From an uncultured Lachnospiraceae bacterium (GTDB taxonomy: Bacteria; Bacillota; Clostridia; Lachnospirales; Lachnospiraceae), in contig CAJOMI010000001.1 in NCBI GenBank assembly GCA_905235545.1, positions 1 to 63,745 of the forward strand: DNA of 63,745 bases, in the 5' to 3' direction. This document shows, one piece after another, positions 1,952-51,155 of the stretch (position 1 is its first letter; every line of letters starts with the position of its first letter). Made by a program: the position numbers and the translations under genes. A model generated the notes under the pieces. That model saw only the letters and a program-made list of their open reading frames with translations. It was not told the origin of the DNA and searched no databases.

Positions 1952-1986
1952 GTGTGACTATTGTGTGACTTCCATTTGCATATAAT
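1952..1986 (+). promoter_or_regulatory. regulon promoter P1: direct repeats GTGTGACT (1952-1959, 1963-1970), N10, TATAAT (1981-1986)
   Basis: Same architecture as the four other sites. Intergenic, about 80 nt upstream of ATG 2068. Confidence 0.6.
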
Positions 1987-2067
1987 TGTAAAAGATGATT
2001 ATATGGGACGGAAAAGAATAATGAGCGGATAAAATCAAATGACAAATCGAATGAAAGGAAAAAGAAT

Positions 2068-3855
2068 ATGAATAACAACAAGCTCTACCCATTTGAAAGA
2101 AACCGTTACTATGCGGGAAAGATGCTCACCAGTGCTGATTTTCTGGCAGAGCAGACCTATTTTAACAACAAACGCCGTTTCTTGAATTCTGTAATGTACG
2201 GATCGGGAATTGTATGTGGACTGGGCGTATTCAGCTTAGATGATTTGTCGATTCTCGTAGAAAGCGGTGTGGCGATTGATGGCATGGGAAGGGAAATTGT
2301 CATCGATTCCTCTGTGGTAAAGAAACTATCTGCTGTAGACGGATTTGACAACCTGCGTTCGAACGATGTTTCCCTGTGCTTATCCTATGAAGAAAAAGAA
2401 GTGCATACGGTATATTCCGTCAATCAGACTAATCCGGATAAGGATTATGAGTATAACAGGATCGCGGAGGGATACAGACTTTTCCTTATGGACAAGGAGG
2501 ATATACCGCTTTCTTTTGAAATGGAATCGGAATTCCTTGCGAAAGGTGTACTCTTTGAGGATGAAAATTTTAGAATTGACTTTTGGATGCCGGCGAGAGT
2601 ATGTCGTGGCAGACAGGTTAAGGCTGTACTGCATGTGACAAAGTTATCCACTTCGGATGTAAAACTCAGGTACAATGGAATCCTTCAGATACCCGCATTC
2701 ACGGCACCGGATGGAGGACATGAGATTGAAGTGGATATAGATAATCTTTTGTTAAATCCGGGCAGAAGCGCAGATTTTGATTTTTGGATGATGACGCAGG
2801 ATGTTCCGACAGAGGAGACCAATATCATCTTAAAGAGCGGCAGTGTAGAGGTGACGGAGAACGGAGATACCGTTTCTGCTTCTGATAATTTTAACGTTCG
2901 CATCCTTCTCTCGGATACAGCACCAAGAGATTTGGTCAATACAGAGATCGGGAAAGTCAATCTTGAGATGAAGAGTGTAGGAAGTCAGGGCGATTATATT
3001 CGTCTTGCGGATATTCAGCTTGTGCGTACAGATCAGGCGTATATCATCGAAGAAGTTACGGAACGCAGTGTGAAATCCTATATAACGGCTCCTGCACAGA
3101 ATATGCTCAGGGAAAGCTATATGGATTTCTTTACGAAAAATGCAGATATTACGCCGGCAACAGTGGAGGTGCGCGATTTAAATCAACAACCAAAGGAGAA
3201 GGTAGAGCCATCGATTCCACAGATTGCCACGGGCGTATTGGAAATACCACTTGGTGAAATGCCAAGAAAGGGTGACATATATTATTCAGGCGAGATTATG
3301 CATGGACTTGGTAAGGGGAATGTATATGTCGATGTAGGATATGAGTTTATCAATGAGGATAAGAGCATATCGTCGAGTTCTAAGAGTACCATATTTGGCA
3401 ACCCGGAACTGTTTGAGGGAGCACAGGTTAATGAGGTAAATGCAGAGACTGCAATTCGTGTGTTGAATGATAAGGGAAGTTTCATTGTTGCAGCGAAACT
3501 CTTGGAAAATGTAGAATATCTGATGCTCACGTATCGCTGGATTGCAATAAAATTCCCTACCGGAAATGATTTGGAACTCATGGATGAGATGGGAGGAAAG
3601 AGTATTTCTGCAGCAACCCCGACTGTGGTTCTGGGCACAAAGGAGAGTCACTTCTTTGGTGTAGAATACCATAATATGGACCCTGTTTCCATTACTTATG
3701 AATTGACGGAGCCAAATTCCGGAGAGATTACACCGGATGGAATCTATACGGCACCAAATAAGGATGGAGTATATGAAATCTGTATTTATTGTACAGATAT
3801 GCCACTCATTTGCACTTATGCATATGCGATTGTAAAGAAAAAGGGGTTAGATTAA
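2068..3855 (+). CDS. conserved hypothetical protein, 595 aa, no signal peptide, beta-rich Ig-like C-terminus
   Basis: Long ORF with RBS GAAAGGAAAAAG. N-terminal motif ERNRYYAGKMLTSADFLAEQTYFNNKRRFLN…GSGIVCGLGV. C-terminal ITPDGIYTAPNKDGVYEICIYCTD resembles an Ig-like fold. Function not assignable. Confidence 0.55.
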   Translation: MNNNKLYPFERNRYYAGKMLTSADFLAEQTYFNNKRRFLNSVMYGSGIVCGLGVFSLDDLSILVESGVAIDGMGREIVIDSSVVKKLSAVDGFDNLRSNDVSLCLSYEEKEVHTVYSVNQTNPDKDYEYNRIAEGYRLFLMDKEDIPLSFEMESEFLAKGVLFEDENFRIDFWMPARVCRGRQVKAVLHVTKLSTSDVKLRYNGILQIPAFTAPDGGHEIEVDIDNLLLNPGRSADFDFWMMTQDVPTEETNIILKSGSVEVTENGDTVSASDNFNVRILLSDTAPRDLVNTEIGKVNLEMKSVGSQGDYIRLADIQLVRTDQAYIIEEVTERSVKSYITAPAQNMLRESYMDFFTKNADITPATVEVRDLNQQPKEKVEPSIPQIATGVLEIPLGEMPRKGDIYYSGEIMHGLGKGNVYVDVGYEFINEDKSISSSSKSTIFGNPELFEGAQVNEVNAETAIRVLNDKGSFIVAAKLLENVEYLMLTYRWIAIKFPTGNDLELMDEMGGKSISAATPTVVLGTKESHFFGVEYHNMDPVSITYELTEPNSGEITPDGIYTAPNKDGVYEICIYCTDMPLICTYAYAIVKKKGLD

Positions 3856-3859
3856 GAGG

Positions 3860-4702
3860 ATGAAATTTCAGTCTCAAAAGATGAACCTTGTAAGCGTGCG
3901 CCTAGTGCTTCGCAATGAAGTGAATGAGGTACATGTTTGCCGGAATTTAAATGATAAAAGTGGAGGATTGTATACTGTCATCTGTGTGAAGGATCACAGT
4001 TATGTAAAGAATTTCCTGGCGGTTTGTGAGCAGACGAAAGGAAATGAAGATTTCTTCGTGGACTGCTTTTCTGACGGCGAGAATCAGATCATTGTCTTCC
4101 CATACGTCAAAGAACGACCGTTGGAGGCATTTTATCGTCCGGATATTCTTTCGCTGCCGGAGTGCGAGGATATCTGTATCAATACGATCATAGCTTGTAT
4201 GAGTACACCACTTCCGTGGCCGCTTCTCTATCTTGCCCTGGCACAGAGACAATTGCATTTGTCCAGAGATGGATCTGTGTATCTGGGATATCTGATTGAT
4301 CTGCAGGAGTTAGATGTGACACGCACAGAGAAAGATTGTACCGTGCAGTGCGCAACACTGTTACTGGAGATGTTGCGACCGAAAGAGAGCAGACACGCAA
4401 ATAGTTTGAAGCTTTTGGAAAAAAAGGTGGCTAAGGAAAGTTACATAAGATTTGTCGAATTATATAAGGATATTCGCATATCGGCTGCACCGAAAAAAAA
4501 GGCGGGACTGTTGAGACGAATACGTCTTTGGTTTGTAAGAAACAAAGATATTCTGTTTCGATTGCTTTTGTGGTTGAGTGTAATACTTGTCATTTTTGTT
4601 GTGCTTTCATTTCTGACACAGATGGTATTTGGTGAGGTGCCGTGGCTCAGATTGTTTATTAACAGTTTTGACCAGATAGGAACCGAAAGTCTCCAACAAT
4701 AA
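3860..4702 (+). CDS. tail-anchored membrane protein, 280 aa, possible degenerate kinase-like fold
   Basis: C-terminal TM LLLWLSVILVIFVVLSFL. The N-terminal part has kinase-lobe-like strings (LYTVICVKD, IIVFPYVKERPLEAF) but no HRD/DFG motifs. Starts 4 nt after the previous stop. Confidence 0.4.
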   Translation: MKFQSQKMNLVSVRLVLRNEVNEVHVCRNLNDKSGGLYTVICVKDHSYVKNFLAVCEQTKGNEDFFVDCFSDGENQIIVFPYVKERPLEAFYRPDILSLPECEDICINTIIACMSTPLPWPLLYLALAQRQLHLSRDGSVYLGYLIDLQELDVTRTEKDCTVQCATLLLEMLRPKESRHANSLKLLEKKVAKESYIRFVELYKDIRISAAPKKKAGLLRRIRLWFVRNKDILFRLLLWLSVILVIFVVLSFLTQMVFGEVPWLRLFINSFDQIGTESLQQ

Positions 4703-4726
4703 AAATAATAGGCGGGGGGATGTAAT

Positions 4727-7258
4727 TTGACAAAGAGAATTATTATTGGACTGAATATAATATGGACCGTTGCCGTTGCCGTTTTTATGTTGATCTGCTT
4801 CTTCCCATGGATACATTCTACGGACGGAATTACGAAGGAGATGTCATATACTGCATCTGAAACGGAAGTATACGTCGCAGACAATATATTTGATCATGCA
4901 GTGATTTACAAATTGGGCAATGACGGATCAAAGAAAGAGATTTTGATAGGGCGGAACAACGATATGATCAGAGATTACAGGGTAAGTACTGTTTCTTATG
5001 AGCAGTCGCTTTTTGCGCTATTTTTTTATGATACGGTTTATGAGGGAAGAACAACTACCGCATACAGGATTGCCAGACTGGATGACGATATGAGAATTGC
5101 GCAGATTTCAGATTCTCTTGTACTTGGAAGCGAGATACGTGTGACATTTTTAAGCGTGGATGACAGTGATATATATATTTCGGCTGTGAACACATCCGGA
5201 AGTGAGGCGTATGTGTACAGGGTTTCACAAGAGGCCATGAGCGATGTGACAACCAAAAGCGGCTTGCATTTTTCTGATGTAAAGGGAAAAGTATCAGGGG
5301 ATAATTCTTCCGAAAAGACAATGGAGGAGGAAGAAAAGATTTCTGAAATCAAGCCTTTTATCTTTGAGGTTGCAGATACAGGCAGAGTCTATTCAGATTG
5401 TGCATATGAGCCGGGCGATCTCCATTTGCAGTATGACAGCGATAAGATGGACGATTTCTTTTCTGTACCGAGCAGGGTAGAAACGGCTTATGGACAGTTA
5501 CATATTACCGGAATTGAATTTAATCGTATGAGAGGGATTGAAATTGCCGCGATCATAATTATATGGGCATTGGGAATTCCTGTAATCATCATCATTACAG
5601 TCATTTTAAAGGGAAGAAACAGGGTGGTCTATTCCGGAGTCGTGATGGAGTTTGCACTGATCTTCCTTTTTGGAATGGCTATTTTCGGTATGGTGCAGTC
5701 TGCTACCGAACTTAGCGAGCGTGAACATGCGAACTTTATGGAATATATCATGAATGATGCATTCTCTAATCTGAATATCGATACGAATGCGTTCAATCTT
5801 TCTGAGAAGGGATCGGCGAGGGAGAATATATTACAATCATTCTATACAAGTGATCTGTATGAGAATATGTATACGGAATTGGCTGATATGAGCACTCTGC
5901 CGAAGGAAAACTGGAAGATTACCGGCATGGCGGTGATTGACCGGGAAAGCGGCGAGGTGTTGGTATCGAACGATCGCCGGAACAGGATACAGATGAGCAG
6001 ACTATACGGCAAAGAGGCATCCTCTTTTGCCCGGATTTCAAACGCAGGGAGCAGCATTCGAACCCGAAAATTCCAATCCGATGACAAGGAATGTGAGATA
6101 TTTGTCAGAAGTTTAGACAATATAGGAATGTCCGATTGTTCACTTGTGGGTGTTGTGTGGTATCAGGATTCCGTAAAAAATGCTGTCACATTATATAATA
6201 AGTATATCAAGAGAGCGATGATCGGATTTGTGATTGCTACGATCGCTATCATTCTTTTGCTGATTTTGGAAAATCGTGATATGCATGCCGTGGCAAAGAT
6301 GTTAAAACTGTTGGCGGAAGGCAGAGGCGTGATTACGAGCCCGGTCGTGCGGGGTAAAGATCTGGTCGCCATGAAAAACAGCACATTTGAGATAGAAAAA
6401 AATATTACAAGTATCAACCGGTCTAAATATCAGATATTTGAGGCGTATTACAGATTTGCGCCGAAATCCATCGAGAGTATGCTGGACAAGGATTCTATCA
6501 CGGAAGTTGAGATTGGTGATATTGCGGATGTTACCGGAACAGTGGCTATTTTTTCCATGAAAGAACGATATCGAACAGATGAAGAAACGCTGGCAAACAT
6601 GAATCACACCTTTGAAATCATGGAACAGTTCAGAGAAGAGCATGACGGTATCTATATCACCAATAATGAAACGCTTTCGCGGGCAAGATATTTGTTCTTA
6701 AAGGATAATAAAGAATCAATGGCGTTTGGTGAGGACGTGTTGGAAAGCATGCGTGAGTGGAAAAAACACGAATTTGTGGACACTCTTATTTTCCTGCATT
6801 ACACAACTTTTTCATACGGTATATGTGGAACGGAAACACAGAGTATGGCATTGCTTTCGTCAAGAGAGATTGAGCGGATTTCTTCGTTTGCCGAGTGGCT
6901 TCGAAAACTTAAAGTTTCGATGGTTGTTACAAAAGCAGTGTTGGAGAGAGAATCCCAATACGATGATGTGCGCTATCTGGGCTTTATTAAGACAGAGTTA
7001 GATGATCATTTGGAACTATATGAAGTTTTGAATGCGCAGGGAAAGCGCATGGCCGATGTTAAGAAAAATACCAAAACCGCTTTTGAGGAGGCAATTCGGC
7101 TCTTTTATGATAAGGACTTCTACCTTGCAAGAAATGCATTTACGGAGATACTCCGTGAAGCACCGGAAGACGGAATCACAAAGTGGTATTTGTTTGAATG
7201 TGAGACGCGGTTGAATGGAAACGCAGAAGATATCTTTACAGGGGCTTTGCACCTATAA
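4727..7258 (+). CDS. polytopic membrane protein, 843 aa, with degenerate class III nucleotidyl-cyclase-like domain and TPR-like C-terminus
   Basis: TTG start after a GGGGGGA RBS. Several TM segments are present (IIIGLNIIWTVAVAVFMLICFF, IAAIIIIWALGIPVIIIITVIL, MIGFVIATIAIILLLILE). The cytosolic RFAPKSIESML…EIGDIADVTGTVAIFSMKE resembles the cyclase homology domain start, but the metal-binding Asp (F-x-D) is absent. The C-terminus FYLARNAFTEILREAPEDGITKWYLFECE is TPR-like. Confidence 0.4.
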   Translation: MTKRIIIGLNIIWTVAVAVFMLICFFPWIHSTDGITKEMSYTASETEVYVADNIFDHAVIYKLGNDGSKKEILIGRNNDMIRDYRVSTVSYEQSLFALFFYDTVYEGRTTTAYRIARLDDDMRIAQISDSLVLGSEIRVTFLSVDDSDIYISAVNTSGSEAYVYRVSQEAMSDVTTKSGLHFSDVKGKVSGDNSSEKTMEEEEKISEIKPFIFEVADTGRVYSDCAYEPGDLHLQYDSDKMDDFFSVPSRVETAYGQLHITGIEFNRMRGIEIAAIIIIWALGIPVIIIITVILKGRNRVVYSGVVMEFALIFLFGMAIFGMVQSATELSEREHANFMEYIMNDAFSNLNIDTNAFNLSEKGSARENILQSFYTSDLYENMYTELADMSTLPKENWKITGMAVIDRESGEVLVSNDRRNRIQMSRLYGKEASSFARISNAGSSIRTRKFQSDDKECEIFVRSLDNIGMSDCSLVGVVWYQDSVKNAVTLYNKYIKRAMIGFVIATIAIILLLILENRDMHAVAKMLKLLAEGRGVITSPVVRGKDLVAMKNSTFEIEKNITSINRSKYQIFEAYYRFAPKSIESMLDKDSITEVEIGDIADVTGTVAIFSMKERYRTDEETLANMNHTFEIMEQFREEHDGIYITNNETLSRARYLFLKDNKESMAFGEDVLESMREWKKHEFVDTLIFLHYTTFSYGICGTETQSMALLSSREIERISSFAEWLRKLKVSMVVTKAVLERESQYDDVRYLGFIKTELDDHLELYEVLNAQGKRMADVKKNTKTAFEEAIRLFYDKDFYLARNAFTEILREAPEDGITKWYLFECETRLNGNAEDIFTGALHL

Positions 7259-7274
7259 AGTTTGATGGGAAGGG

Positions 7275-8519
7275 ATGTCTATGGGTAATTTATTTCAAGT
7301 TATGATCAATGCCATAAAGGCACGGTTTACGCGGATTGTTACGAAAATCAGAATGTTCACGCAGAAGGATTATCTGAAGACAAGAGTGATTGAGCGAATC
7401 CGACAGTTTTTCCAGCGCCTTTTTTCGGTCAAGCCAAAAGATAAGGACGATTACTATGGAGTATTTGGATGGCTGATATCCAAAAAGCTCGCATTTGCAA
7501 TTGTTATCATTGTGGGTGTGTTGTCATTGATCTATACATATTACACATATCCGTCTCTTTTTCCGGGAAAGAATACAGACTATATAAAGACATATCCTTA
7601 TAATTCGATCATGCTGAAGTTTGCGAAGGGAGATGTCAGAATTACAGGCAAATCCAAATACCTTGCATATGACGGCAGTGTATCTAAGGGGAAGTGCAAC
7701 GGATTTGGCACACTCTATAATCCGGCGGGGAATGTTGTATATCAGGGTAATTTTGAGAACAGTATGTATGAGGAACAGGGGAACTTTTATTATCCGGATG
7801 GCACCATGCATTATATGGGCGGCTTTCATGAAAATCTGTTTTCCGGTGACGGGGTTTTATATCGGGAGAACGGAAGTCTGGAATATGAAGGTGCATTTCT
7901 TCTCGGCATGAAAGAAGGAGAGGGAACCCTTTATGACACCGGACACAATAAAATATTTAACGGCAAATTTACACAGGATGAGGTGAAGTACAGTTCTCTT
8001 TTGGGTATGAATATACAGGAACTGGCAGGAGCTTATACCGGCAATGTTGTGCTTTATGATTCCGGTTTGGAAAGGGTTCGTTCCATGCAGGATATTGATG
8101 CATTGACTTCCGAGAGCAATGACAGTAATTCAGTAGAAGAAAACTACATAGTAAACAGTGTCTATGTATTGCACAATTATTTCCGAATCGGCGGGACTGA
8201 CCTCACCAGTATCACGGAGATAACAAAAGAGATGGGAACGCCTACCTATGAGGGTACCTCACGTGCTACTTTGCCGGAGGTCTTGGCTATAAATGAGAAA
8301 AATAACAATGAAGAAACGTTTGGCGGCACGGTAAATATCAATTTAAGACAAATCTATACAGAGTATATTGAAGTGGATGATTATGATACAGATTATGAAG
8401 TTTATCTTGTAAGCTACGCAAAGGATGGTCTTGTCTATAATTTTGTGACGGAACAGGGAAGAGACGACTTTGCTTTTTATTATATCATACAGGAAGATAA
8501 AAGCGATCTGAATCAGTAA
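7275..8519 (+). CDS. membrane-anchored MORN-repeat protein, 414 aa
   Basis: TM LAFAIVIIVGVLSLIYTY. Repeated Y-x-G-x-F-x-x-G-x-x-x-G-x-G units follow (YDGSVSKGKCNGFGTLY, YQGNFENSMYEEQGNFYY, YMGGFHENLFSGDGVLY, YEGAFLLGMKEGEGTLY). Confidence 0.6.
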   Translation: MSMGNLFQVMINAIKARFTRIVTKIRMFTQKDYLKTRVIERIRQFFQRLFSVKPKDKDDYYGVFGWLISKKLAFAIVIIVGVLSLIYTYYTYPSLFPGKNTDYIKTYPYNSIMLKFAKGDVRITGKSKYLAYDGSVSKGKCNGFGTLYNPAGNVVYQGNFENSMYEEQGNFYYPDGTMHYMGGFHENLFSGDGVLYRENGSLEYEGAFLLGMKEGEGTLYDTGHNKIFNGKFTQDEVKYSSLLGMNIQELAGAYTGNVVLYDSGLERVRSMQDIDALTSESNDSNSVEENYIVNSVYVLHNYFRIGGTDLTSITEITKEMGTPTYEGTSRATLPEVLAINEKNNNEETFGGTVNINLRQIYTEYIEVDDYDTDYEVYLVSYAKDGLVYNFVTEQGRDDFAFYYIIQEDKSDLNQ

Positions 8520-8582
8520 ATTTAAGAATGCTTCCGGCACTTTTGACTCGGAATGCATTTAAACTTTGCCAATTTATCATTT

Positions 8583-8616
8583 TGTGACGGCTTTGTGACT
8601 TTGAATGTTGCATAAT
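8583..8616 (+). promoter_or_regulatory. regulon promoter P2: TGTGAC (8583-8588), N5, TGTGACT (8594-8600), N10, CATAAT (8611-8616)
   Basis: Identical spacing to P1. Intergenic, about 90 nt upstream of ATG 8707. Confidence 0.6.
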
Positions 8617-8706
8617 ATAAACAGAATCGAACCGTAAACGGGTTCAGCGGGTAACAAGCGAGTCTTGACAATGTGAAAACCTTGCAGGGACGAGGAGAAG
8701 TGACAT

Positions 8707-10947: not shown

Positions 10948-10987
10948 TGAAAGCGCTTTTGTGTCATATCGATGAGGAGAATGTATT

Positions 10988-14095: not shown

Positions 14096-14120
14096 GGTAA
14101 TGTGGATAGGGAGTGATAGA

Positions 14121-17915: not shown

Positions 17916-17929
17916 AAAAATGCAATTAC

Positions 17930-17963
17930 AGTGACTGTTTCGTGACTGTTTGTGTTGTACAAT
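17930..17963 (+). promoter_or_regulatory. regulon promoter P3 (CIS tail operon): AGTGACT (17930-17936), CGTGACT (17941-17947), N10, TACAAT (17958-17963)
   Basis: Same 11-bp phasing and same N10 spacing to the -10. Intergenic, about 115 nt upstream of ATG 18080. Confidence 0.55.
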
Positions 17964-18676: not shown

Positions 18677-18679
18677 AAT

Positions 18680-34853: not shown

Positions 34854-34917
34854 CAGGGAATAGATAAAGAGGATTGAATTTTGTAAGTGCCGATCTATAT
34901 TTAATGTACGAGGAGAG

Positions 34918-37047: not shown

Positions 37048-37059
37048 TGGAGGGATACT

Positions 37060-38142: not shown

Positions 38143-38164
38143 ATATGACTTGGAGGACAAAGAT

Positions 38165-38464
38165 ATGACGATTAAAGAGATAAAAAAAGAAGGAGAAATT
38201 TTACTTGAAATCACGGGAAGGATTGATACCACAACGGCACCGGAGTTGCAGCAGGCGATATTGATCGCATTTCAAAAGGTAAAGAAACTGGTGATTGATT
38301 TTAAAGCCGTTGAGTACATATCAAGTGCCGGCTTGAGGGCTCTGTTGATCGGAGAGAAAACAGCCAAATCCAAGGGAAGCAGTATGGTCATTACCGGTGC
38401 AAATGATGCTGTAATTGATATATTTAAGGTGACAGGTTTTATCAATATTCTTACATTGGAATAG
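38165..38464 (+). CDS. STAS-domain anti-sigma-factor antagonist (SpoIIAA/RsbV-like)
   Basis: ITGRIDTTTAPELQQ…LVIDFKAVEYISSAGLRALL…MVITGANDAVIDIFKVTGF, with the conserved phosphorylatable Ser in ISSAGL. ATG 38165 follows GGAGGA (alternative TTG 38150). Confidence 0.8.
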   Translation: MTIKEIKKEGEILLEITGRIDTTTAPELQQAILIAFQKVKKLVIDFKAVEYISSAGLRALLIGEKTAKSKGSSMVITGANDAVIDIFKVTGFINILTLE

Positions 38465-38477
38465 GAGATATTACACA

Positions 38478-39578: not shown

Positions 39579-39638
39579 TTGTGCAGAATGGTTTGCAGAA
39601 CTGACTGAGAGGTATGAATTATAACCGGAGGTGAAAAC

Positions 39639-39902
39639 ATGTCATTACTGTATTCGAATCTGTCGGACCGTTTGATGGAAGAGAATCGGCGGGTAAATGC
39701 AGAAAACAAACAAAAAAATGATATTCAGCAGGATCAGGATGAGGATGAGATGGGATATGCCTACGATGAGCCGGTGCATTTTGGATTTCTCAATGAGAAC
39801 AGAGGTATCTTTGTCAATAATGACGATGAGAATGCGCTGAATACGGCTAAAAGTGTATTTGACAAGACAGCAGTCTTTCGAGTAAAGCAGGACGAAGACT
39901 AG
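39639..39902 (+). CDS. small acidic hypothetical protein, 87 aa
   Basis: ORF with a GGAGGTGA RBS, in the same orientation, inside the operon. No family recognised. Confidence 0.4.
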   Translation: MSLLYSNLSDRLMEENRRVNAENKQKNDIQQDQDEDEMGYAYDEPVHFGFLNENRGIFVNNDDENALNTAKSVFDKTAVFRVKQDED

Positions 39903-39969
39903 ATGAACATAGCAATAACAGGATAATGTAATGATCGGTCAGATCAATATGAGATGAGGAGATGGAAGA

Positions 39970-42465: not shown

Positions 42466-42569
42466 CAATAGATCAGAGCATTAGGGGGGCAAAATACCTT
42501 TTGACCCCAACATCATGATATAGATACATAATACTTCGTTAATTATTTTTCGGGAAACGGGGGGATAGT

Positions 42570-45500
42570 ATGGATGAAGTCGTATTGTCTGAAGAAGAGA
42601 TAAAAGAGCTGAAAAATCAGATTTTAAATGGTGTAAAAAATGCGAAAGCTCAAAATATAAAAGAAAGAAAACAAAAAATTTACAATGATAATGCAAATTT
42701 GATAAATGATTATCTGAAAAAACAAAGAGAACAGGAAATAGTACGGCGTAATAGAAAAAAGAAGTCCCGGACCGGTGGTAATAAGAATATCCAAAACAAT
42801 TATAATCGGACAGTAAAGAATGATCAGTCGGATAATTCTTTAAAGAATAATTTTATAAAGAAGGAAGAAGAAAAAAGGGAAGAGATCAATAACAGAATAA
42901 AGAAAAGCTTTCCGGAACCGGAAAAAACAGACGAAAATAAGCTTCCTGAGGTAGAAGGCGGGAAGGGTGTATTTGAGTTGCCACAAGATATGGAAATTGA
43001 AAAACAGCCTGAGGAGAAGAATGCAGGACAGGAAGATGAACTTATCTTAGAGATTAATGGAAAAGTGGTAGATATAGAGAATCTTGAGGAGAGAGTTTCC
43101 GCTGTACCGGGAATGGAAGAAGTAGAACAGAATGAAGAAAATGACCGGCAAGGTGACATTGCGGATCATGTGATCAATGAAGTCGGTGCAGCAAAGAATG
43201 AACCGAATAACGAAGTAGAGGAAGAAGCAAAGAATGAACGGAATAACGAAATAGAGGAAGAAGCAAAGAATGAACGGAATAATGAACCGAATAACGAAAT
43301 AGAGGAAGAAGCAAAGAATGAACGGAATAATGAACCGAAGGAAGAAGCAAAGAATGAACGGAATAATGAACCGAATAATGAAGTAGAGGACGCAGCAAAG
43401 AATGAACCGGAAATAGAATACGATGATTTTCTGAGTGGCTTATATTTTGTGCTGACCGGAAAAGAGAAGAGATATACTGCAGTAGAGAGAAATGAGCTTA
43501 TGGACAAAGACGTCGATAAGCGATTGTTATATCACCGTACGATGCAAAAAAAACTGGAACTTGATGCCGTTAACCAGATTAAAAAGGAAAGAAACAAAAA
43601 TGAGTTCAAAGACAAGATAAAAAATTTTGAAGAGAATATGCGGGATACTGACGGAATGAGGCGGATTGACGGTTTTCTTAAGATGGACTATACCATTTTT
43701 GATAACTTCGAAGACATCTATATTGTGTTGAACTTCGAAAAATTGAATAATGCAATTGAACAGTCGGAACATATTTATAAGGATGTGTTACCTTTAGCAG
43801 TCGAGGCCGGAACCATTGACGAGAACACCCGGGTGAATGTTACCGCGCTTGCAATGGCAATCGATGACTACAAGGAATATATGAATTATCGTATCATGAT
43901 AATAGCAGATGAGAATTATACGTTGGCATTAGACGAAGAACCGTTTAGAATGAACGCAGATGACGCTGCAATTTATGAGAGATTAGACAAGTTCACTTCA
44001 GACAATAATCTGAGTGAAAGAAACCTCAATACTTTGATGCACTTTGTTACATATAAGACCGGCATGAACGGTAATGACAAAGGTGATAGAAAAAGGAATC
44101 CTTTGTTTGCCGAACATTTTAATGATGAGAAGAGCAATATGCTTACCCGTATGCAGCAATACGGGTTTAGTGCTGAGGAAAAGGAAGAAAATGTTGATGA
44201 GGATATCGATGAGGATCTCGCTGCGCTTGAACAACAGGTAAAGGCTGAGGATGTTGATCAGGAGGCTGACAGGGAAGCTGCGAATATTCCTGAAGTCCCT
44301 GAGATACTTATTCCTAAGAGAAGAAGACAGCTTAATTATCTTATAACGGGAAATGATATTATGCCACAAGAGTTGCATGAGGGCGAAGAGAAAAACAGAA
44401 GTGACCTTGCGGGCAAGGCAAGAGAGATATATCAGGCGTGGGAGAATATGAATCCTGAACTTTCACTGGAAAGAGCTCTTCTTGATGTGTCCAAGTATGA
44501 GGAACAGGGTTTTATACTTCCGCCTGAGATACTTGAAGTGGTAAGGGCGGGAATCCGACCGGGAGAATCTCTTGAGGTAAGGAAGGCGAATGCAGATACT
44601 TTGGCTGAAGGAATGTATCGTGGAGATAATGAGGATGCTAAGCAACTTCCACATATATTGATCAGCAATTATATGCGGACTGATTTTTCAATATTTGATG
44701 CGCTGGATGATGAAGCAATCGTCAGTCATTACAACGAAGCAAAACGTCTGTTGAATTATGGTCTTTCTCTGCAGGAGCTGTTTTATCAGACAGCTGATAA
44801 TAAAACCTGTCTGCTTTCGCAGGACAGGGCAGATAATTTTTATGCCATTCTCTCCGCACTTAGGGATTATATGGATTACGCCACAATACGTATGGATATC
44901 ATTAGAAGTCCGTTTTATTCCCTGTTTGATGTTGATAAAGAGATTAAGGAACAGGATATTAAGCAGGTTGAGGATGCAGGTAAAGGAGAATATGAGGCAG
45001 ATTTGTTGATGTATATAAAAAAATATGCAGATATTGCTCCGTATATTGAAAAAGTAAAAAGAGGAGGCTTCTATGAACGTGCTTCGGGTTATGGATATGT
45101 TGATATAAATGAGTATCTTGATGAAAATCCGGAAATGCAGGAGAAATTCAGAGAGTATATCACACAGGAAAAGAATATGGAAATGTTTGCTGTACTTCCC
45201 CAACTGGTGGAGTATTATGGGGAGGAGGATGAGACAGCAATAGAAAATATTGCCCGAAGTAACGAATTGCGAATTGAGCGTAATAATTTTAACAATGTTC
45301 AAAAGGTTGTAGGCAGCAATAAGGATTATGATGAAGTGAAGAACGATCCGAAGTATGAAGAACAGACTGCAGGGCGTGAAGCTCTTTCGGAGAGGGCGGT
45401 TGAACTGATCAACAGTCTGAATGTTGAGGAAACGGATGCCAATATATGGCTGGATGAACTTATGGATACTGATGTGAGCATACTCGATAACATGTCTTCC

Positions 45501-48500
45501 GATGAGAAGCTGATAGAGCATTTTGAGGATATATTAAAGCTTACCACCAGATGGAAAATCATCAAGGAGAAGCTTTCCGTATATGATGAACAGGGAATGC
45601 ATATTCCTTCCGAAGACAGGATAAAACTTAAGGGATTACAGGAGATGCTTTCTGACGCACAGGTTTACCTTATATTAAAACTGAATCAGATAAAAAATCC
45701 ATTTTATAAGAATATGCACCTCTCTGACGAGATAGGCAATGAAAATACGGATGTAGAAGCATTTAACAGACGGTTAGAAAAATTCGAGAATGACAATGCG
45801 GAGCTTATGAACTATGTGCAGGCAACAGGGCTTGTTGTCAATTCCGCATTTCTTTCGATGTTTGCCGGCAATGGAAAGAATACGGCAGAGAAATATATTC
45901 AGGCTGTTTCAACTTCAGAGGAAGCAAGAATACAGGAAACAAACCAAAATCGTATATCGAAAATGGCAGATAACTATGCAGCTGTCACTTATCTGTTTGA
46001 CGGAGGAGAGGGACAGATTAACGCAGATATGCGCTTATTTTCTGAGGGATCAGGTAAGCGAGAAGGAAGAACCAAAAAAAGCTTAGAGGCAGTAGACGCG
46101 TATACTGCGTATAACGAAAAAGTTATGGATACTTTTAAGACGGCCAAAGAAAGGTTAAAAGTAATCCGTTATGCAAATTATGATATCGATCCTAAGATCA
46201 TCAACGGAATTTATACAATGTTAAAGATCGGAGGTACTGAAGAGGACATCAAGTATAATACAGAGCTCCTTATGAACCTCGGGGCGGAGAATATTAACAC
46301 AAGAGGAGCAGCGTACAAAGAGATGGTAGATAACTTACTCGCTGTTGAGCTATCTAAGTTTGACAGATGCGATGATGAGTATTTTATCGCTAATTATACG
46401 GAGCTTAAGTCTTTAGCGGAACCGGCAATCGCATTGGCCCGGCCGGGAGTGATCAATTCGTTTGCAAAGAACGGATATCGAATATCAGAACAGAAGAAGA
46501 AAAATCTGGTTGCCCTTTCGGATAATATCAAAAAATATATGGACTTTATGGATGCACGTATGAAGGTCATTCAACATCCGCTTTACGAACTCGTATTTCG
46601 GGAGACGGATAACAACAAGGATTTCAAACCTGAGGAATTGAAACAACGGATGTTAAGAGCCGGTCAGATGATGAGTTCAAAAGACAGGGACTATATAGAG
46701 GTTCTTGTGAATGCATTCTCCGTAAGCTTTCCGTTTGCAATGCGTAATATGTCTATGCGGGAACGACTTGAAGCAGACGGTTATAAAACTCCGGAGGGAG
46801 GAGCTTATGATGAGGATATCGCCGGTAATGAGGCTTATCAGCAAGAGATTGCAGACGATCATATAATAAAAGAGACAGTGGAGCTTCGGACAGAGCAGTT
46901 CGTTACCAATGTGCTCAAAGAACTTGGCACGGGTGATGGAAAGCAGAGTTTGGAGGATTATGAGAAGCAGAACGCTGACAGGGAGAAGAGAAAAACACTT
47001 TCCGAGAAAATGAGAACACTTCCGGAATTCGATAGCGTCGAGCCGGTAATACTTGTAATGGATCTTTTGGCAGGACATGAGGATGTAATTAATGCATTCC
47101 TCTCCATGGATTTTAAGGAACTTGATAATCTTAGTGATGAAACTATCGTTGAAAGATATCAGGATATAGCAGCACTTTGCAGAGTGGATGATCAGGTTCG
47201 TCCGGCGCTTGAAACACTAAGGGCAGATTATAATGATACGAACAAGGATGCGAAGGATAAACCAACAACCACAACAATATCTGCAGTGGTGGGCAGACTG
47301 GAAATGCTGAATGATCTGAGAAATTATATGGTGGTTAAGAGATTGGTTATCAGCAATCCACTATATGAGAAGCATTATAATGAGGCTTATCTATCGTATC
47401 ATGAAGATGCGGGTGCTATGCATGATAAGATAGATTCTTTGGAGGGAAAGCTAAGCGAAGATGAGGCGGAATATCTTAGGAATGTTGCAAGTATTATGAG
47501 TAAACCGTTCATGGCAAGATACACCGGCAACGGTAAAACCACGGCTGATGCTTATGGAAAACAGCAGGAAAACGATAACTTTGCAAGAGGCGAGCTGAAA
47601 GATGAAGGTAAAAAGAACGTCATTTTAGATGAGAATGAAAGATCTGCGGGTGAGATTTCCGGTGATCCGGAGGATATCAATACTTCGTTGGCGAATATAG
47701 AGGGAGAACTGGGTTCTAAAGCAATGTCGGAACCGTTGAATGAATTGAAAACATTCACGGAAACTTCCCAATATCAGCAACGGCTCTATAAGAGAGAAAT
47801 GCAAACCAGAAATTTTTCCAAAGATATCAACCATAATATGCAGCCGATCAAGGAACAGATTAAAATAATATTTAATCTGTTAAATGAGGAGATGAATTAC
47901 GGTCATGATGACCAGTTTGCTGAAGAATTGGATTTGCTACTCAATCATTTTGAGGTATTGGGTGTATTATGCAGTCAGTATCTGACCGGTACGCGAAACA
48001 AAACGTCGGATGATATGAATCAGGCTGCGATCAGAAAGGTGCGAAGGATCAGAGATATTGCCCATTATGCATATACCCAGACATACACCAGTGCGCGCAT
48101 GAGCCGTATATATTTCAGACAGCAGGATATATCCGGAAGAAGAGTTCCATGGATCAATATGTATCACTATGCGGAGCAACCTATTGTATGGGAACAGGGA
48201 TTGGTTCCATATACAGAGATCAATAAAGAAGAAATATCGGCGATAAAAGGTGAGAAGAAACCAAGGACCAGGCTTAAGGAATTTACACCTGAGGATAATT
48301 CTTTTGTGAAGATCGAACACTGGATGACAATATTTTCCGAATGCAAGCCAGACTATGTCAATGCGATTGACCGTGAGCTGTCCATTAAAGACATGGAAAA
48401 GATTGAGAAGCTGGTAAACACTGTAAATATGCGGACAAATCAGGGGCTTCCGGATGATTCGAGGGATTTTATCCGGGCATGTGATGATATGATACATTCC

Positions 48501-48803
48501 TTTACCGCTACGAATATTCGATTAAAAAAGTATATTGATAATATGAAGGTTGAGACGGAGGATGACAAGACACAGAAGCGGATGTTGGAGAATGTTATGT
48601 ACCTGTTGAAGTCACAGATTGATTTATACAATGTATATGGAAATAGCGTTCCGGATACATACGAGGTTATAAAGAATGATCCCAAGAATGATACGATCAG
48701 TGATGTATTTTTGTCATGGTATCAGGATTATGCAGCCAGAGCCATAAAAAAGATGGAACAGATGAAGCAGGTGGAAGCAGGTACAGGTGAGAAAGATTCG
48801 TAA
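42570..48803 (+). CDS. giant charged repeat protein, 2077 aa, five ~250-330-aa internal modules; function unknown (cargo or scaffold candidate)
   Basis: Single uninterrupted ORF with a GGGGGGA RBS. A recurring motif pair [ST]D[FV]SI[FL]D … Y[ML]D[YF]…R[ML]x[IV]I..P[FL]Y appears five times. No signal peptide, TM or catalytic motif recognised. Confidence 0.6.
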   Translation: MDEVVLSEEEIKELKNQILNGVKNAKAQNIKERKQKIYNDNANLINDYLKKQREQEIVRRNRKKKSRTGGNKNIQNNYNRTVKNDQSDNSLKNNFIKKEEEKREEINNRIKKSFPEPEKTDENKLPEVEGGKGVFELPQDMEIEKQPEEKNAGQEDELILEINGKVVDIENLEERVSAVPGMEEVEQNEENDRQGDIADHVINEVGAAKNEPNNEVEEEAKNERNNEIEEEAKNERNNEPNNEIEEEAKNERNNEPKEEAKNERNNEPNNEVEDAAKNEPEIEYDDFLSGLYFVLTGKEKRYTAVERNELMDKDVDKRLLYHRTMQKKLELDAVNQIKKERNKNEFKDKIKNFEENMRDTDGMRRIDGFLKMDYTIFDNFEDIYIVLNFEKLNNAIEQSEHIYKDVLPLAVEAGTIDENTRVNVTALAMAIDDYKEYMNYRIMIIADENYTLALDEEPFRMNADDAAIYERLDKFTSDNNLSERNLNTLMHFVTYKTGMNGNDKGDRKRNPLFAEHFNDEKSNMLTRMQQYGFSAEEKEENVDEDIDEDLAALEQQVKAEDVDQEADREAANIPEVPEILIPKRRRQLNYLITGNDIMPQELHEGEEKNRSDLAGKAREIYQAWENMNPELSLERALLDVSKYEEQGFILPPEILEVVRAGIRPGESLEVRKANADTLAEGMYRGDNEDAKQLPHILISNYMRTDFSIFDALDDEAIVSHYNEAKRLLNYGLSLQELFYQTADNKTCLLSQDRADNFYAILSALRDYMDYATIRMDIIRSPFYSLFDVDKEIKEQDIKQVEDAGKGEYEADLLMYIKKYADIAPYIEKVKRGGFYERASGYGYVDINEYLDENPEMQEKFREYITQEKNMEMFAVLPQLVEYYGEEDETAIENIARSNELRIERNNFNNVQKVVGSNKDYDEVKNDPKYEEQTAGREALSERAVELINSLNVEETDANIWLDELMDTDVSILDNMSSDEKLIEHFEDILKLTTRWKIIKEKLSVYDEQGMHIPSEDRIKLKGLQEMLSDAQVYLILKLNQIKNPFYKNMHLSDEIGNENTDVEAFNRRLEKFENDNAELMNYVQATGLVVNSAFLSMFAGNGKNTAEKYIQAVSTSEEARIQETNQNRISKMADNYAAVTYLFDGGEGQINADMRLFSEGSGKREGRTKKSLEAVDAYTAYNEKVMDTFKTAKERLKVIRYANYDIDPKIINGIYTMLKIGGTEEDIKYNTELLMNLGAENINTRGAAYKEMVDNLLAVELSKFDRCDDEYFIANYTELKSLAEPAIALARPGVINSFAKNGYRISEQKKKNLVALSDNIKKYMDFMDARMKVIQHPLYELVFRETDNNKDFKPEELKQRMLRAGQMMSSKDRDYIEVLVNAFSVSFPFAMRNMSMRERLEADGYKTPEGGAYDEDIAGNEAYQQEIADDHIIKETVELRTEQFVTNVLKELGTGDGKQSLEDYEKQNADREKRKTLSEKMRTLPEFDSVEPVILVMDLLAGHEDVINAFLSMDFKELDNLSDETIVERYQDIAALCRVDDQVRPALETLRADYNDTNKDAKDKPTTTTISAVVGRLEMLNDLRNYMVVKRLVISNPLYEKHYNEAYLSYHEDAGAMHDKIDSLEGKLSEDEAEYLRNVASIMSKPFMARYTGNGKTTADAYGKQQENDNFARGELKDEGKKNVILDENERSAGEISGDPEDINTSLANIEGELGSKAMSEPLNELKTFTETSQYQQRLYKREMQTRNFSKDINHNMQPIKEQIKIIFNLLNEEMNYGHDDQFAEELDLLLNHFEVLGVLCSQYLTGTRNKTSDDMNQAAIRKVRRIRDIAHYAYTQTYTSARMSRIYFRQQDISGRRVPWINMYHYAEQPIVWEQGLVPYTEINKEEISAIKGEKKPRTRLKEFTPEDNSFVKIEHWMTIFSECKPDYVNAIDRELSIKDMEKIEKLVNTVNMRTNQGLPDDSRDFIRACDDMIHSFTATNIRLKKYIDNMKVETEDDKTQKRMLENVMYLLKSQIDLYNVYGNSVPDTYEVIKNDPKNDTISDVFLSWYQDYAARAIKKMEQMKQVEAGTGEKDS
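43191..43410 (+). repeat. tandem 36/48-bp in-frame DNA repeats encoding AKNE(R/P)NNE(PNNE)(I/V)EEE units
   Basis: GCAAAGAATGAAC(C/G)GAATAA(C/T)GAA… recurs six times from 43191 to 43395. Confidence 0.8.
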
Positions 48804-48851
48804 ACGAGTCTTGACATGAAATGAGGTCAGGGATAGAAGAGGTGATATACA

Positions 48852-51056
48852 ATGTATGGATACGGAGATTATTATGACGAGAGACTTACCCAAATTCCAT
48901 ATACGGACAGCAGTGAAGAACTTGAGGATTACAGGGCATTAGTTGAGATTATGTTAGAGGATCTGGCGGGAATCAAGGGGGTCGGCACAGAGGAAGGATT
49001 GTTCTCCAAAGGGCTGGTAATCTCCGAAGCAGAGATGCAGGAGTATTTTGTGAATCACCCTTCCGTCAGAGAAAAGGATTTTTATTTCTATATATTGGGT
49101 GATGTGGTGAAACAGGCAATAGGACACATAGAAAGCAGAGAGGAGAGCACATCGGATAATGTCTTTTTGCCCATAAGGAATATCAGAAAGAATTTTGGAC
49201 TCAGTGACGCTTGGACAGTGGCATTGGTACTTGCCTTCCTTGCCCATACGAACAGGGGATATGAGAGAATATATGGATTTTTGCAGGATGATATAGAAAG
49301 CAGTGAACCGACACTGGGACTTGCTGTTTCTTTGTGTGAGAGAGCCTTTTATGAGGATAAACTCAGTGCTTCAGATATACTGTCGGACAAGTCATATCTG
49401 TTCGGAACGTTATTCATGGAGGAGGGAATCAATCCGGTATATCCTCTTCGCACGAAACTGATCCTGACAGGAGCAGCACTGACTTATATGAATGGGAATA
49501 CCACTCTTTTTGGTTATGGTGCCGGGATTCCGTATGGCTTGCTATGTGAATATGAAGACGGGAAGACGCCGGCCTTTTTTGAAAAGGAGGTAAAGGTGCT
49601 TTTCAATCTGATCAGACATGGTGACGCGTTACCGTGCCTGTTTGTGGAAGGCAGGGATCAGGATGCGATCATTCATGTGGCAGCGCTGGCGGCGCGTGCT
49701 AACGGAAAGCGTTTCGTCACCGTGTCGGGTGAGTCAATAAGTACGGCAGATGAAATGGAATGTTCCGGTATGGTGGCTTTTTTGTCTTTTTATGGTCATA
49801 TGGAAGGAATTACGGTGATGGTAACGGATGTGACGGATGAGAGGCTTGCAGATGAATCCTTTACGCGCATATTGAAGAGATTGATCCGGACAGAGGGAAT
49901 TGCCCCATTTCTATTTGCAGGAAGTGATCAGACACCGGAAAGATTTAAGACCGGAGCTGCGACGGGAACGCCTGTCCTCCATTTGCAACTACCGGTACCG
50001 GATGTAAAAGTCCGAACCACGATATGGGATTATTTTATCAAAGATGCCGGATTGTCCAAAGAAAAGGGATTTTCCAGCGAGGAGATCGCAGACTGTTATG
50101 AGGTAGGCTATGGTGTTATCAAGACTGCAGTGTCCCAGGCAAAACTCAATATGCTGGCAAATGGAGTAAAAAAGGTTAACAAGGATATCGTAGCCGATGC
50201 ACTGAAAGGAATCGGAACGGTCAACTTCAAAGGACTGGCCAAGGAGGTGCGGGCAGTCTACACATGGGAGGATCTTTGTATTGGAGATACGGAGCGCAGA
50301 GTGCTTCAGACGGCATGTGACCGCTATAAGATAAAGAACCGCATCGGTGAGAACTGGGGCATTACGAAAAAAAATGCTTACGGAAACGGTGTATCGGTGT
50401 TGTTGTATGGTCCGCCGGGAACCGGTAAAACCATGTCGGCACAGGTGGTGGCAAGAGAAATCGGACTTCCGTTATATCGTGTAGATACGTCGCAGCTCTT
50501 CTCAAAATATATCGGGGAGACACAAAAGAACTTAAATGCGGTATTTGACGAGGCAGAGGCTTCCAATGTGATACTGTTTTTTGATGAGGCGGATGCGCTT
50601 TTTTCAAAGAGGACGGATGTGGAGAGTTCCAATGACCGTCATGCTAATCAGGAAATCGCTTTTCTTCTCCAGAGGATAGAGGAATATAAAGGAATGAGTC
50701 TGCTTGCCACAAACTTTTATTCGGGATTTGATCAGGCATTTGTACGTCGTATCACATACGCGGTGAGATTAGAACAGCCGGATTACGAGACAAGACTCTC
50801 TCTTTGGAACAATACGCTTCCGGAAGAGGTCCCGAAGGAAAAATCAATTGATTATGAATTTTTAGCAAAGAATTTTGAACTTACGGGAAGTAACATCAAG
50901 GCAATCCTTCTCTCGGCTGCTTATATGGCCGGAGCAGAGGACGGAATGCTTTCCATGGCACATATCGTCCGGGCTATGAAATATGAGTTTGACAAGCTCG
51001 GCATGATGCCGGACTCGGGCAAATTTGGACCTTATTCCGTGTATTTGTTTGGATGA
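48852..51056 (+). CDS. Afp15-like CIS AAA+ ATPase, copy 2 (734 aa)
   Basis: Walker A LLYGPPGTGKT, Walker B ILFFDEAD, and LLATNFYSGFDQAFVRRI. The C-terminal module is clearly alignable to copy 1. Confidence 0.8.
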   Translation: MYGYGDYYDERLTQIPYTDSSEELEDYRALVEIMLEDLAGIKGVGTEEGLFSKGLVISEAEMQEYFVNHPSVREKDFYFYILGDVVKQAIGHIESREESTSDNVFLPIRNIRKNFGLSDAWTVALVLAFLAHTNRGYERIYGFLQDDIESSEPTLGLAVSLCERAFYEDKLSASDILSDKSYLFGTLFMEEGINPVYPLRTKLILTGAALTYMNGNTTLFGYGAGIPYGLLCEYEDGKTPAFFEKEVKVLFNLIRHGDALPCLFVEGRDQDAIIHVAALAARANGKRFVTVSGESISTADEMECSGMVAFLSFYGHMEGITVMVTDVTDERLADESFTRILKRLIRTEGIAPFLFAGSDQTPERFKTGAATGTPVLHLQLPVPDVKVRTTIWDYFIKDAGLSKEKGFSSEEIADCYEVGYGVIKTAVSQAKLNMLANGVKKVNKDIVADALKGIGTVNFKGLAKEVRAVYTWEDLCIGDTERRVLQTACDRYKIKNRIGENWGITKKNAYGNGVSVLLYGPPGTGKTMSAQVVAREIGLPLYRVDTSQLFSKYIGETQKNLNAVFDEAEASNVILFFDEADALFSKRTDVESSNDRHANQEIAFLLQRIEEYKGMSLLATNFYSGFDQAFVRRITYAVRLEQPDYETRLSLWNNTLPEEVPKEKSIDYEFLAKNFELTGSNIKAILLSAAYMAGAEDGMLSMAHIVRAMKYEFDKLGMMPDSGKFGPYSVYLFG

Positions 51057-51121
51057 AAAAATAATTACTTAATATTAAGGAGAGGGCCTGCTAAAACTAT
51101 CTCTGACAGAAGCATAAAGAT

Positions 51122-51155
51122 TGTGACATTTATGTGACATTTAATGTGGTATCTT
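51122..51155 (+). promoter_or_regulatory. regulon promoter P5: TGTGACA (51122-51128), TGTGACA (51133-51139), N10, TATCTT (51150-51155)
   Basis: Perfect TGTGAC hexamers at 11-bp phasing with the same N10 spacing. Intergenic, about 90 nt upstream of ATG 51244. Confidence 0.55.

Follow-up and report, generated by a model that had tools for sequence, protein, structure and literature searches.

What switches on the genes of a contractile injection system (CIS) whose locus carries one and the same promoter-like element five times? The question is raised by a stretch of 63,745 nt from an uncultured Lachnospiraceae bacterium (CAJOMI010000001.1, positions 1–63,745), which is referred to below as the window and to which all coordinates refer. 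Its five elements, named P1 to P5, share the general form TGTGACn-N4-TGTGACn-N10-TAnnnT, all lie on the + strand, and each of them precedes an operon. In our view, these elements are probably sigma-A promoters without a -35 box, built like SARP or pho-box sites, activated by the response regulator encoded next to P1 and joining the five operons into one regulon.

Phased heptamers upstream of five operons

The five sequences had been quoted in an earlier note on this DNA, and each of them was found letter for letter in its place on the + strand (Table 1). Re-measuring confirmed that the two heptamers are phased by 11 bp and that 10 nt separate the second one from the -10-like hexamer (5/5 sites in both respects). 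The open reading frame (ORF) map also agreed with the placement described there: the sites occupy gaps between co-directional genes (1935 to 2068, 8519 to 8707, 17915 to 18080, 31262 to 31406, and 51056 to 51244, respectively) and are co-oriented with the downstream genes, whose start codons follow the beginning of the motif by 115, 124, 150, 141, and 122 nt, that is, within 115–150 nt at 5/5 sites. The excess of copies over chance, another claim of the note, was reproduced with dinucleotide shuffles: GTGAC-N6-GTGAC has four exact matches in the window versus 0.03 expected, while GTGAS-N6-GTGAS-N12-A-N3-T matched only P1–P5, with 0 matches on the - strand, versus 0.02 expected. Allowing one mismatch added a sixth match at 55839, which falls within the SpoIIE-type gene, lacks a -10, and is no more than chance would give. 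A weight-matrix scan had been proposed as a check, and it was carried out with a 34-nt matrix built solely from the sites of other genomes, hence not circular for the window. It recovered exactly P1–P5 (23.8–36.9 bits), the next position of the window scoring 10.1 and the top of 20 shuffles 17.6 bits.

The assumption that the repeats take the place of the -35 box was supported by a scan with the sigma-70 consensus TTGACA-N16-18-TATAAT, which revealed no -35-like hexamer 16–18 nt from the -10 at any of P1–P5; by eye, the hexamers standing at this distance match TTGACA at only one or two of six positions. Promoter-like and terminator-like matches in the window scans were overall at chance level. 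Judged by their consensus, TAnAAT, the -10 elements look sigma-A-like. They are preceded by the TGn of an extended -10 at P4, P5, and several orthologous sites, while both the -35 and TGn are missing from P1 and from its three orthologs. If transcription is assumed to start 7 nt past the -10, the heptamers would lie at about -40 to -34 and -29 to -23, and the two 11-bp units would cover -40 to -19, just as the afs box does. No terminator-like hairpin was found by the window scan just upstream of P1–P5, so the five promoters may act within a long co-directional array; every gene of the window except the last is on the + strand.

Several other classes of element were considered and rejected. The pentamer TGTGA is half of the CRP/FNR palindrome TGTGA-N6-TCACA, but all repeats found here are direct and have no inverted partner. 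LytTR regulators, which could be expected from the family of the adjacent kinase, bind 9-bp repeats approximately 12 bp apart (21-bp period), whereas the repeats here are 7 bp long with a period of 11 bp and the output domain of the regulator is not LytTR. A conserved leader RNA was dismissed as well, since the P3 leaders of four loci differ in both length and sequence and the Rfam scan of the window gave no match. A lone reverse heptamer (GTCACA at 18008–18013, reading TGTGAC on the - strand) is found in the P3 leader of the window, approximately 40 nt past the predicted start, in a segment of the leader that is missing from the orthologous loci.

Orthologous loci were reached through protein homologs and contig look-ups. 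The named homologs of the window proteins belong to Lachnospiraceae, and one related locus comes from a goat-rumen metagenome-assembled genome; scanning genome contigs with the 846-aa CIS protein returned a single locus, L006, and the same scans of the metagenome and viral sets gave no match. The comparison set comprised 18 sites from the window and nine related loci (L001, L003, L004, L006–L009, L011, and L005, which duplicates L004), whose regulators are 66–75% and whose 846-aa CIS proteins are 54–77% identical to those of the window. The syntenic order is kinase, regulator, and genes of approximately 595, 280, 844, and 413 (MORN) aa, followed by one of approximately 740 aa, and the regulator gene is adjacent in all three independent loci with this synteny that extend far enough to include it (L001, L003, and L004, with L005 arranged as L004).

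Conservation of the motif at orthologous positions, likewise a check suggested by the note, was found in these syntenic Lachnospiraceae loci. The gaps orthologous to those of P1 and P2 hold TGTGACn-N4-TGTGACn-N10-TAnnAT in L001, L003, and L004/L005, and P1 starts 3–28 nt past the stop codon of the regulator, or overlaps it, in four independent lineages. The P3 ortholog stands upstream of the Pvc16-like gene in L007, L008, and L009, and the P4 ortholog in the gap between the spike and gp25 genes of L006, L007, and L008; this latter site is missing in L009, where the gap is just 44 nt. As for P5, AGTGACG-AAAA-TGTGACT-N10-TAAATA was detected upstream of the LPG_synthase_C block in L011. In L010, the LPG_synthase_C-MFS-PP2C-RsbW block directly follows the CIS ATPase gene with no gap and no P5 site, and is consequently fused into the P4 transcription unit. 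In L004/L005, the block is located upstream of the kinase-regulator pair, behind other genes, and no P5 ortholog was found in the DNA examined around the LPG_synthase_C operon. Comparison of these sequences shows that P4 and P5 are not kept in every relative, the same genes being sometimes fused into the upstream operon, and that the association of the genes survives rearrangements even without a separate promoter.

In the 18-site alignment, high information content is confined to both GTGAC cores, the -10 (TAnAAT), and the T-rich spacer, with values near zero in the flanks; among orthologous sites, the sequences of the spacers, the N10 stretch, and the flanks have diverged. At the sites of the related loci (n = 13), the heptamers are exactly 11 bp apart and the gap to the -10 is 10 nt, except for P4 of L006 and L007, where TATAAT is best read at 9 nt. 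No further match to at least nine of the ten core positions followed by a -10-like hexamer was found in the neighbouring housekeeping DNA of the related loci, and the 8.9 kb left of the window lack such core matches altogether. The P3 repeats begin with A (AGTGACT) in 4/4 lineages and those of P1, P2, and P4 with T; the A-initial heptamer is a promoter-specific variant conserved across genomes. The P3 ortholog of L009 (3235–3280) contains three phased repeats, TGTGAAA-AAAC-AGTGACT-GTTT-AGTGACT.

A receiver-linked SARP-like protein as candidate activator

The gene preceding P1 encodes a response regulator whose REC domain was recognized by Pfam with 72 bits, has the conserved residues D53, T81, and K101, and is nearest to LytR/BtsR receivers, which fits a partner kinase of the PF06580 type. 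The AlphaFold model of the full-length protein (pLDDT 88) aligned over both domains with regulators of the OmpR/PhoB family and matched the fold of PrrA, DrrB, VanR, PhoP, and KdpE. The model of the C-terminal domain (pLDDT 92) gave its best match with the SARP domain of AfsR (8hvr, 8k60; TM 0.71–0.73, E 2e-5) and was also near EmbR, while PhoB scored lower (TM 0.52, over the winged helix part alone). The approximately 40 residues (three helices) that follow the winged helix align with the start of the BTA domain of AfsR and EmbR; a complete all-helical BTA domain is lacking. According to these models, the DNA-binding domain is closer to SARP (AfsR, EmbR) than to PhoB. Of the 21 regulator family members, 19 matched Trans_reg_C, the lowest E-value being 3.7e-5. 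One homolog, 47% identical, is named “two-component SAPR family response regulator” by JGI, a name that we take to denote COG3947-type regulators, that is, REC plus SARP-like output, and this architecture was found in the regulator of the window by Pfam and the structure models.

The orthologs of the short kinase encoded just upstream are 233–251 aa long and have one N-terminal transmembrane helix and no sensor domain. In the window, this gene is frameshifted: a 2-nt deletion near 460 splits the membrane anchor (410–481) from the kinase ORF (468–1127). Compared with L094 9277–9350 in the database copy of the same contig, the segment 408–481 reads GTAATTATTAATG and is 2 nt shorter than GTAATTATATTAATG, and the L094 copy of the kinase is an intact ORF of 239 aa; the source contig is an ENA metagenome scaffold of 107,748 nt. 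The deletion may have arisen in the assembly, or it may be a true variant of the strain which disables or delocalizes the kinase.

No heptamer repeats were found upstream of the kinase-regulator operon, where a canonical promoter stands instead (Table 1); at the same position, L001 contains a terminator followed by TTGGAC-N15-TGTGgTATAAT. From these sequences, the pair appears to be transcribed from an ordinary promoter, and the regulator is probably not autoregulated, because the repeats are missing there. Autoregulation of the operon was rejected on these two grounds.

The earlier note had assigned the sites to the OmpR-PhoB or pho-box class and had called SARP sites similar. The activator-type layout stood up to comparison, while the DNA-binding domain is by its predicted fold nearer to SARP, and the receiver and the kinase are of the LytS/LytR type. 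The pho box consists of two 7-bp direct repeats with 4 bp between them, located 10 bp upstream of the -10 and replacing the -35. The elements described here have the same 7+4+7 layout at 10 bp from the -10, the regulator is likewise a REC-winged-helix protein of the phosphorylatable type, and both domains of its full-length model can be aligned with structures of the OmpR/PhoB family. In contrast to PhoB, however, the winged helix stays below the Trans_reg_C threshold and is structurally nearer to SARP, the receiver is LytR/BtsR-like, and the kinase is of the PF06580 (LytS/YesM) type without a sensor domain, not a HisKA-type PhoR-like protein. LytS/LytR systems, in which a PF06580 kinase is paired with LytTR or AraC output, share the kinase family and the receiver subtype, but the output here is a SARP-like winged helix, the sites are 7-bp repeats with an 11-bp period, and the kinase has a single membrane helix instead of being a multi-pass sensor.

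SARP sites are direct repeats spaced by 11 or 22 bp, the 3' repeat being 8 bp from the -10, and the afs box lies at -40 to -19, where it overlaps a poor -35; AfsR is described as acting by sigma adaptation (PMC10936776). The elements of the window resemble these actinobacterial sites (AfsR and the afs box, and the heptamer repeats of ActII-ORF4 and DnrI) in having 11-bp direct repeats over a poor or absent -35, a fixed short distance between the 3' repeat and the -10, and a predicted span of -40 to -19 (PMC10936776), with a unit made up here of a 7-bp core and four less conserved bases; the modelled DNA-binding domain is structurally closest to AfsR and EmbR. Unlike classical SARPs, the regulator has an N-terminal receiver and a cognate histidine kinase, and its BTA domain is cut to approximately 40 residues, which Pfam BTAD misses. 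The host is a low-GC Firmicute and not an actinomycete, the core is TGTGAC instead of a TCGAG-like sequence, and the heptamer ends 10 nt, not 8 nt, from the -10, a figure that depends on how the repeat is delimited. The targets are CIS and accessory operons instead of antibiotic biosynthesis genes.

Regulators adjacent to extracellular CIS (eCIS) loci have been surveyed (Geller et al. 2021). In the available part of this survey, GerE/LuxR-type regulators, sometimes with a kinase, are listed as conserved neighbours and BTAD as a “shell” domain near eCIS loci (PMC8213781). The present case is similar in that a transcription factor, sometimes of a two-component system, stands beside the CIS cluster (PMC8213781). 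The survey, as far as that part goes, operates at the level of domain co-occurrence and mentions no binding site, promoter architecture, or regulon (PMC8213781); the regulator described here is not of the GerE type, and putative sites and target operons are defined for it.

Considering the proteins and the sites together, the following mechanism can be proposed, in which binding, activation (rather than repression), the transcription starts, and the signal are what we infer. The small membrane-anchored kinase would phosphorylate the regulator, a dimer of which would bind head-to-tail through its SARP-like winged helices, one protomer per repeat. The bound regulator would then recruit or adapt RNA polymerase and so substitute for the -35 contact, in the manner of AfsR at the afs box and of PhoB at the pho box. 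In this manner, one signal would turn on the five co-directional operons together: two of unknown function (P1, P2), that of the CIS tube, sheath, and spike (P3), that of the CIS baseplate and ATPase (P4), and the lipid-modification, transporter, and partner-switching operon (P5).

Sites beside paralogous regulators

The link between regulator and site was followed in paralogs collected by a metagenome scan with the family alignment, which gave 80 loci with regulators of 40–52% identity, 77 of them usable. A site was scored if a heptamer was repeated at 11 bp (at least 6/7 identical) and TAnnnT followed 9–11 nt later within the 210 nt past the stop codon of the regulator. Such a period-11 site was present in 20/77 loci (26%). 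Shuffled regions gave 1.4%, the rest of the DNA of these loci, counted on both strands, gave 1.4% per 210 nt, and the opposite strand 3/77; the enrichment directly downstream of the regulator gene is approximately 19-fold. The heptamers varied: TGTGAC[T/A] was found in the window group, L064, L069, and L070, TGTTGCA in seven loci, TGGTACA in three, and TGGTGCG, TGCCTCC, TGCAACG, TGCCTAC, TGTCTAA, and TGTCGCG in one locus each; the general repeat unit reads TGnnnCn-nTTT. Several of these loci have extra promoters elsewhere with the same heptamer pair.

The distances between heptamers correlated with those between recognition helices (residues 184–203) in a Mantel test (r 0.54, p 2e-4), and less so with those of the REC domain (r 0.28) or of helices 1–2 (r 0.22). 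At residue 192, Asn occurs solely with TGT heptamers (15/17 TGT loci), Lys with TGG (4/4), and Ser with TGC (3/3). The heptamer thus co-varies with the recognition helix. The proposal of the earlier note that the REC-winged-helix regulator is the candidate gained computational support from its predicted fold, the site architecture of the paralogs, and this covariation.

These data also bear on the possibility that an unlinked DNA-binding protein reads the repeats and that the adjacency of the regulator is coincidental. Such a protein would be compatible with the fact that binding by the regulator is inferred and that its own operon has no upstream motif, so that no autoregulatory link exists. 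We nevertheless regard coincidence as quite improbable, since P1 lies 3–28 nt past the regulator stop codon, or overlaps it, in lineages that are independent of one another, the placement recurs with the above enrichment in paralogs having different heptamers, and the heptamer follows the recognition helix.

In the 80 paralog loci, tblastn produced 62 matches to a homologous kinase. In the cultured Eubacterium oxidoreducens (L012), a paralog is followed at 10785–10818 by AGTATCC-GTTT-TGTGTCC-N10-TATAAT, and the locus, as far as examined, contains no CIS. In L035, TGTGTCT-TTAT-TGTGTCC-N10-TACAAT (at approximately 5600–5640) precedes homologs of the first two P1 genes (595 and 280 aa), and P1-type genes can consequently be neighbours of a related regulator whose site specificity is not that of the window.

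The STAS protein, the SpoIIE-type PP2C phosphatase, and the RsbW-like kinase have homologs that recur beside paralog regulators in L029, L032, L045, L060, L074, and L093, and homologs of the CIS genes of the window were not detected by tblastn in these six loci. A single protein of 714 aa combines the phosphatase and the RsbW-like kinase in L004/L005. None of these partner-switching genes has a sigma factor alongside it. The module may thus be linked with the present two-component family instead of with a sigma factor.

As an alternative, the earlier note had considered that the partner-switching genes of the locus gate a sigma factor not seen there. Such a factor would be encoded elsewhere, be freed by the STAS, RsbW-like, and PP2C proteins, and read TGTGAC as its -35. 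Three partner-switching genes without a visible target speak for it. This explanation is not supported, and its probability appears to be very low: a sigma factor gene was found neither among the 38 scanned proteins of the window nor among the called genes of the related loci, the two TGTGAC hexamers are 11 and 22 nt from the -10, neither being a workable distance, and the -10 consensus is sigma-A-like. Moreover, the element is a helically phased tandem repeat, present even in three copies in L009, an arrangement not known for sigma -35 elements, and paralog loci without CIS have the same architecture with other heptamers that track the recognition helix of their regulators.

A wider, tentative extension of regulator-driven activation is conceivable, to which we give rather less than even chances. 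There might be a large Lachnospiraceae family of pairs consisting of a sensor-less single-helix PF06580 kinase and a REC-SARP-like regulator, all of which would use TGnnnCn-nTTT twice at 10 nt from the -10. The variable heptamer bases would determine the specificity and be read by a few residues of the recognition helix (192 being one candidate), and the kinase would possibly receive its input from the STAS, RsbW-like, and PP2C proteins, which accompany family members whether or not a CIS is present, rather than from a ligand-binding sensor domain. If this is true, a partner-switching module would feed a two-component system instead of a sigma factor.

Several findings weigh against activation of the five operons by the adjacent regulator. 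Approximately 70% of the paralog loci have no clear site directly downstream of the regulator gene, and the covariation is supportive rather than conclusive because shared ancestry inflates the test, the heptamer groups being largely clades. In L013, a distant CIS locus with the same gene order and 40% identity, the motif is missing at both positions, and it thus marks one sub-lineage of this CIS type. As regards the proteins, the C-terminal Trans_reg_C match of the regulator reaches 19.3 bits compared with the Pfam cut-off of 26.2, Pfam BTAD gave no match in the 21 regulator family members at E < 1, and the frameshift in the kinase gene means that the system may be impaired in this assembly or strain. 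The last point concerns the sign of the effect. Extended -10 promoters of the sigma-70 type can work without a -35, and P4, P5, and several orthologous sites with TGn could therefore be partly -35-independent, in which case a protein bound at -40 to -23 would repress them.

The repeats would then be operators at which the regulator or another protein represses -10 or extended -10 promoters, a site overlapping the -35 region being able to occlude RNA polymerase. This reading is unlikely in our opinion, though it draws on the TGn that precedes the -10 at P4, P5, and part of the orthologous sites. With neither -35 nor TGn, P1 and its three orthologs would be very weak unaided, and the strict spacing of 10 nt to the -10 is needed for face-of-helix contact with polymerase but not for simple occlusion. 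The SARP and PhoB sites of this register that have been characterized are all activator sites (PMC10936776).

The promoter architecture itself is of a textbook type and mechanistically unsurprising. What appears to be new is that, in Firmicutes, it serves a SARP-like regulator with a fused receiver and a truncated BTA domain, whose partner is a LytS-type kinase lacking a sensor, that it defines a regulon of five operons around the CIS of a Gram-positive bacterium, and that one site grammar, with variable specificity bases, is common to a whole regulator family. Our literature search found no paper dealing with REC-SARP regulators of Firmicutes or with the way in which CIS are regulated in Lachnospiraceae, and no characterized member of the COG3947-type “SAPR family” regulators. 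Hardly any work exists on the CIS of Gram-positive bacteria from gut and rumen, and the search gave nothing on what switches them on; the five promoters with their candidate activator offer a handle for inducing particle production by overexpression of the regulator or of a phosphomimetic form. The regulon would place approximately 16 kb of genes of unknown function (P1, P2) and the lipid-modification, transporter, and phosphatase operon in the functional unit of the CIS and, if true, would extend SARP-style activation beyond actinomycetes and under two-component control. The family pattern suggests a simple recognition code, which could supply orthogonal promoter-regulator pairs for Lachnospiraceae. 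The larger upside lies in the possible link of the partner-switching genes to this two-component family.

Genes of the locus

Gene content was determined by Pfam and NCBIfam scans of the 38 window proteins (Table 1). The CIS is of the Afp/PVC-like eCIS kind, and its set is complete by Pfam, with matches to Pvc16_N, DUF4280, Phage_sheath_1/1C, Phage_T4_gp19, two CIS_tube, Phage_base_V, GPW_gp25, two Baseplate_J, and Tail_P2_I, and two AAA proteins. The earlier note had stated that the motif links three operons of unknown function to the CIS; the linkage stands, with the amendment that two operons (P1, P2) are of unknown function and the third (P5) is devoted to lipid modification and partner switching.

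Table 1. Coordinates of promoter elements, operons, and selected genes in the window
Feature	Position	Strand	Description
Promoter candidate, sigma-A-like	262..290	+	TTGACC-17-TAAGAT with TG, upstream of the kinase-regulator pair
Short histidine kinase	408..1127	+	One N-terminal transmembrane helix, PF06580 His_kinase, HATPase_c, no sensor domain
Response regulator	1132..1935	+	REC, SARP-like winged helix, short helical C-terminal stub; candidate activator
P1	1953..1986	+	TGTGACT-ATTG-TGTGACT-N10-TATAAT; predicted transcription start ~1993
P1 operon	2068-8519	+	Four genes; the last has MORN repeats, the others no known domains
P2	8583..8616	+	TGTGACG-GCTT-TGTGACT-N10-CATAAT; predicted start ~8623
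P2 operon	8707-17915	+	Three large genes, the first with a weak OEP match
P3	17930..17963	+	AGTGACT-GTTT-CGTGACT-N10-TACAAT; predicted start ~17970
P3 operon	18080-31262	+	Pvc16-like cap, DUF4280 (PAAR-like), sheath, tube, two CIS_tube, YQBQ-like protein, spike
P4	31265..31298	+	TGTGACT-GTTT-TGTGAGT-N10-TATAGT, TGn before -10; predicted start ~31305
P4 operon	31406-51056	+	gp25, two baseplate-J, Tail_P2_I, STAS, kinase-like ATPase, AAA ATPase, 2077-aa protein, AAA+WHD ATPase
STAS protein	38150-38464	+	P4 operon
P5	51122..51155	+	TGTGACA-TTTA-TGTGACA-N10-TATCTT, TGn before -10; predicted start ~51162
P5 operon	51244-57392 at least	+	LPG_synthase_C, MFS fusion, SpoIIE-type PP2C phosphatase with HAMP, RsbW-like kinase
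SpoIIE-type phosphatase	55236-56900	+	P5 operon
RsbW-like kinase	56961-57392	+	P5 operon
Further genes after the RsbW-like kinase	51244-onward region		Cell-wall hydrolase, second LPG_synthase_C, CspB-like protease

The first gene of the P2 operon (8707–10947, 746 aa) gave a TolC-like outer-membrane efflux (OEP) match with an E-value of 7e-11. It stands in an apparent Lachnospiraceae genome, a group generally regarded as monoderm, and the next two proteins (1035 and 1271 aa) have no known domains. The P2-operon proteins may form a CIS-associated envelope or anchoring complex.

The contig encodes three LPG_synthase_C (DUF2156) paralogs, two in the P5 region (51244–52203 and 58637–59689) and the third 8 kb left of the window (L094 925–1827). 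The first of them is always followed by a fusion protein of approximately 990 aa with an MFS domain. One ortholog cluster (P0249) comprises 2424 member sequences, and the block is consequently common in the sampled communities. For the right flank of the contig, a look-up of the 584-aa protein gave no record.

The 2077-aa protein of the P4 operon (42570–48803) has no Pfam match, is encoded between the two AAA ATPases, and has a 2137-aa counterpart at the same position of L010; it could be a tail fibre, a tape measure, or an effector. The distant locus L013 contains between the tube gene and the next gene a G+C-rich non-coding stretch of 660 nt (6142–6801) with several long inverted repeats, and the matching gap of the window is just 77 nt.

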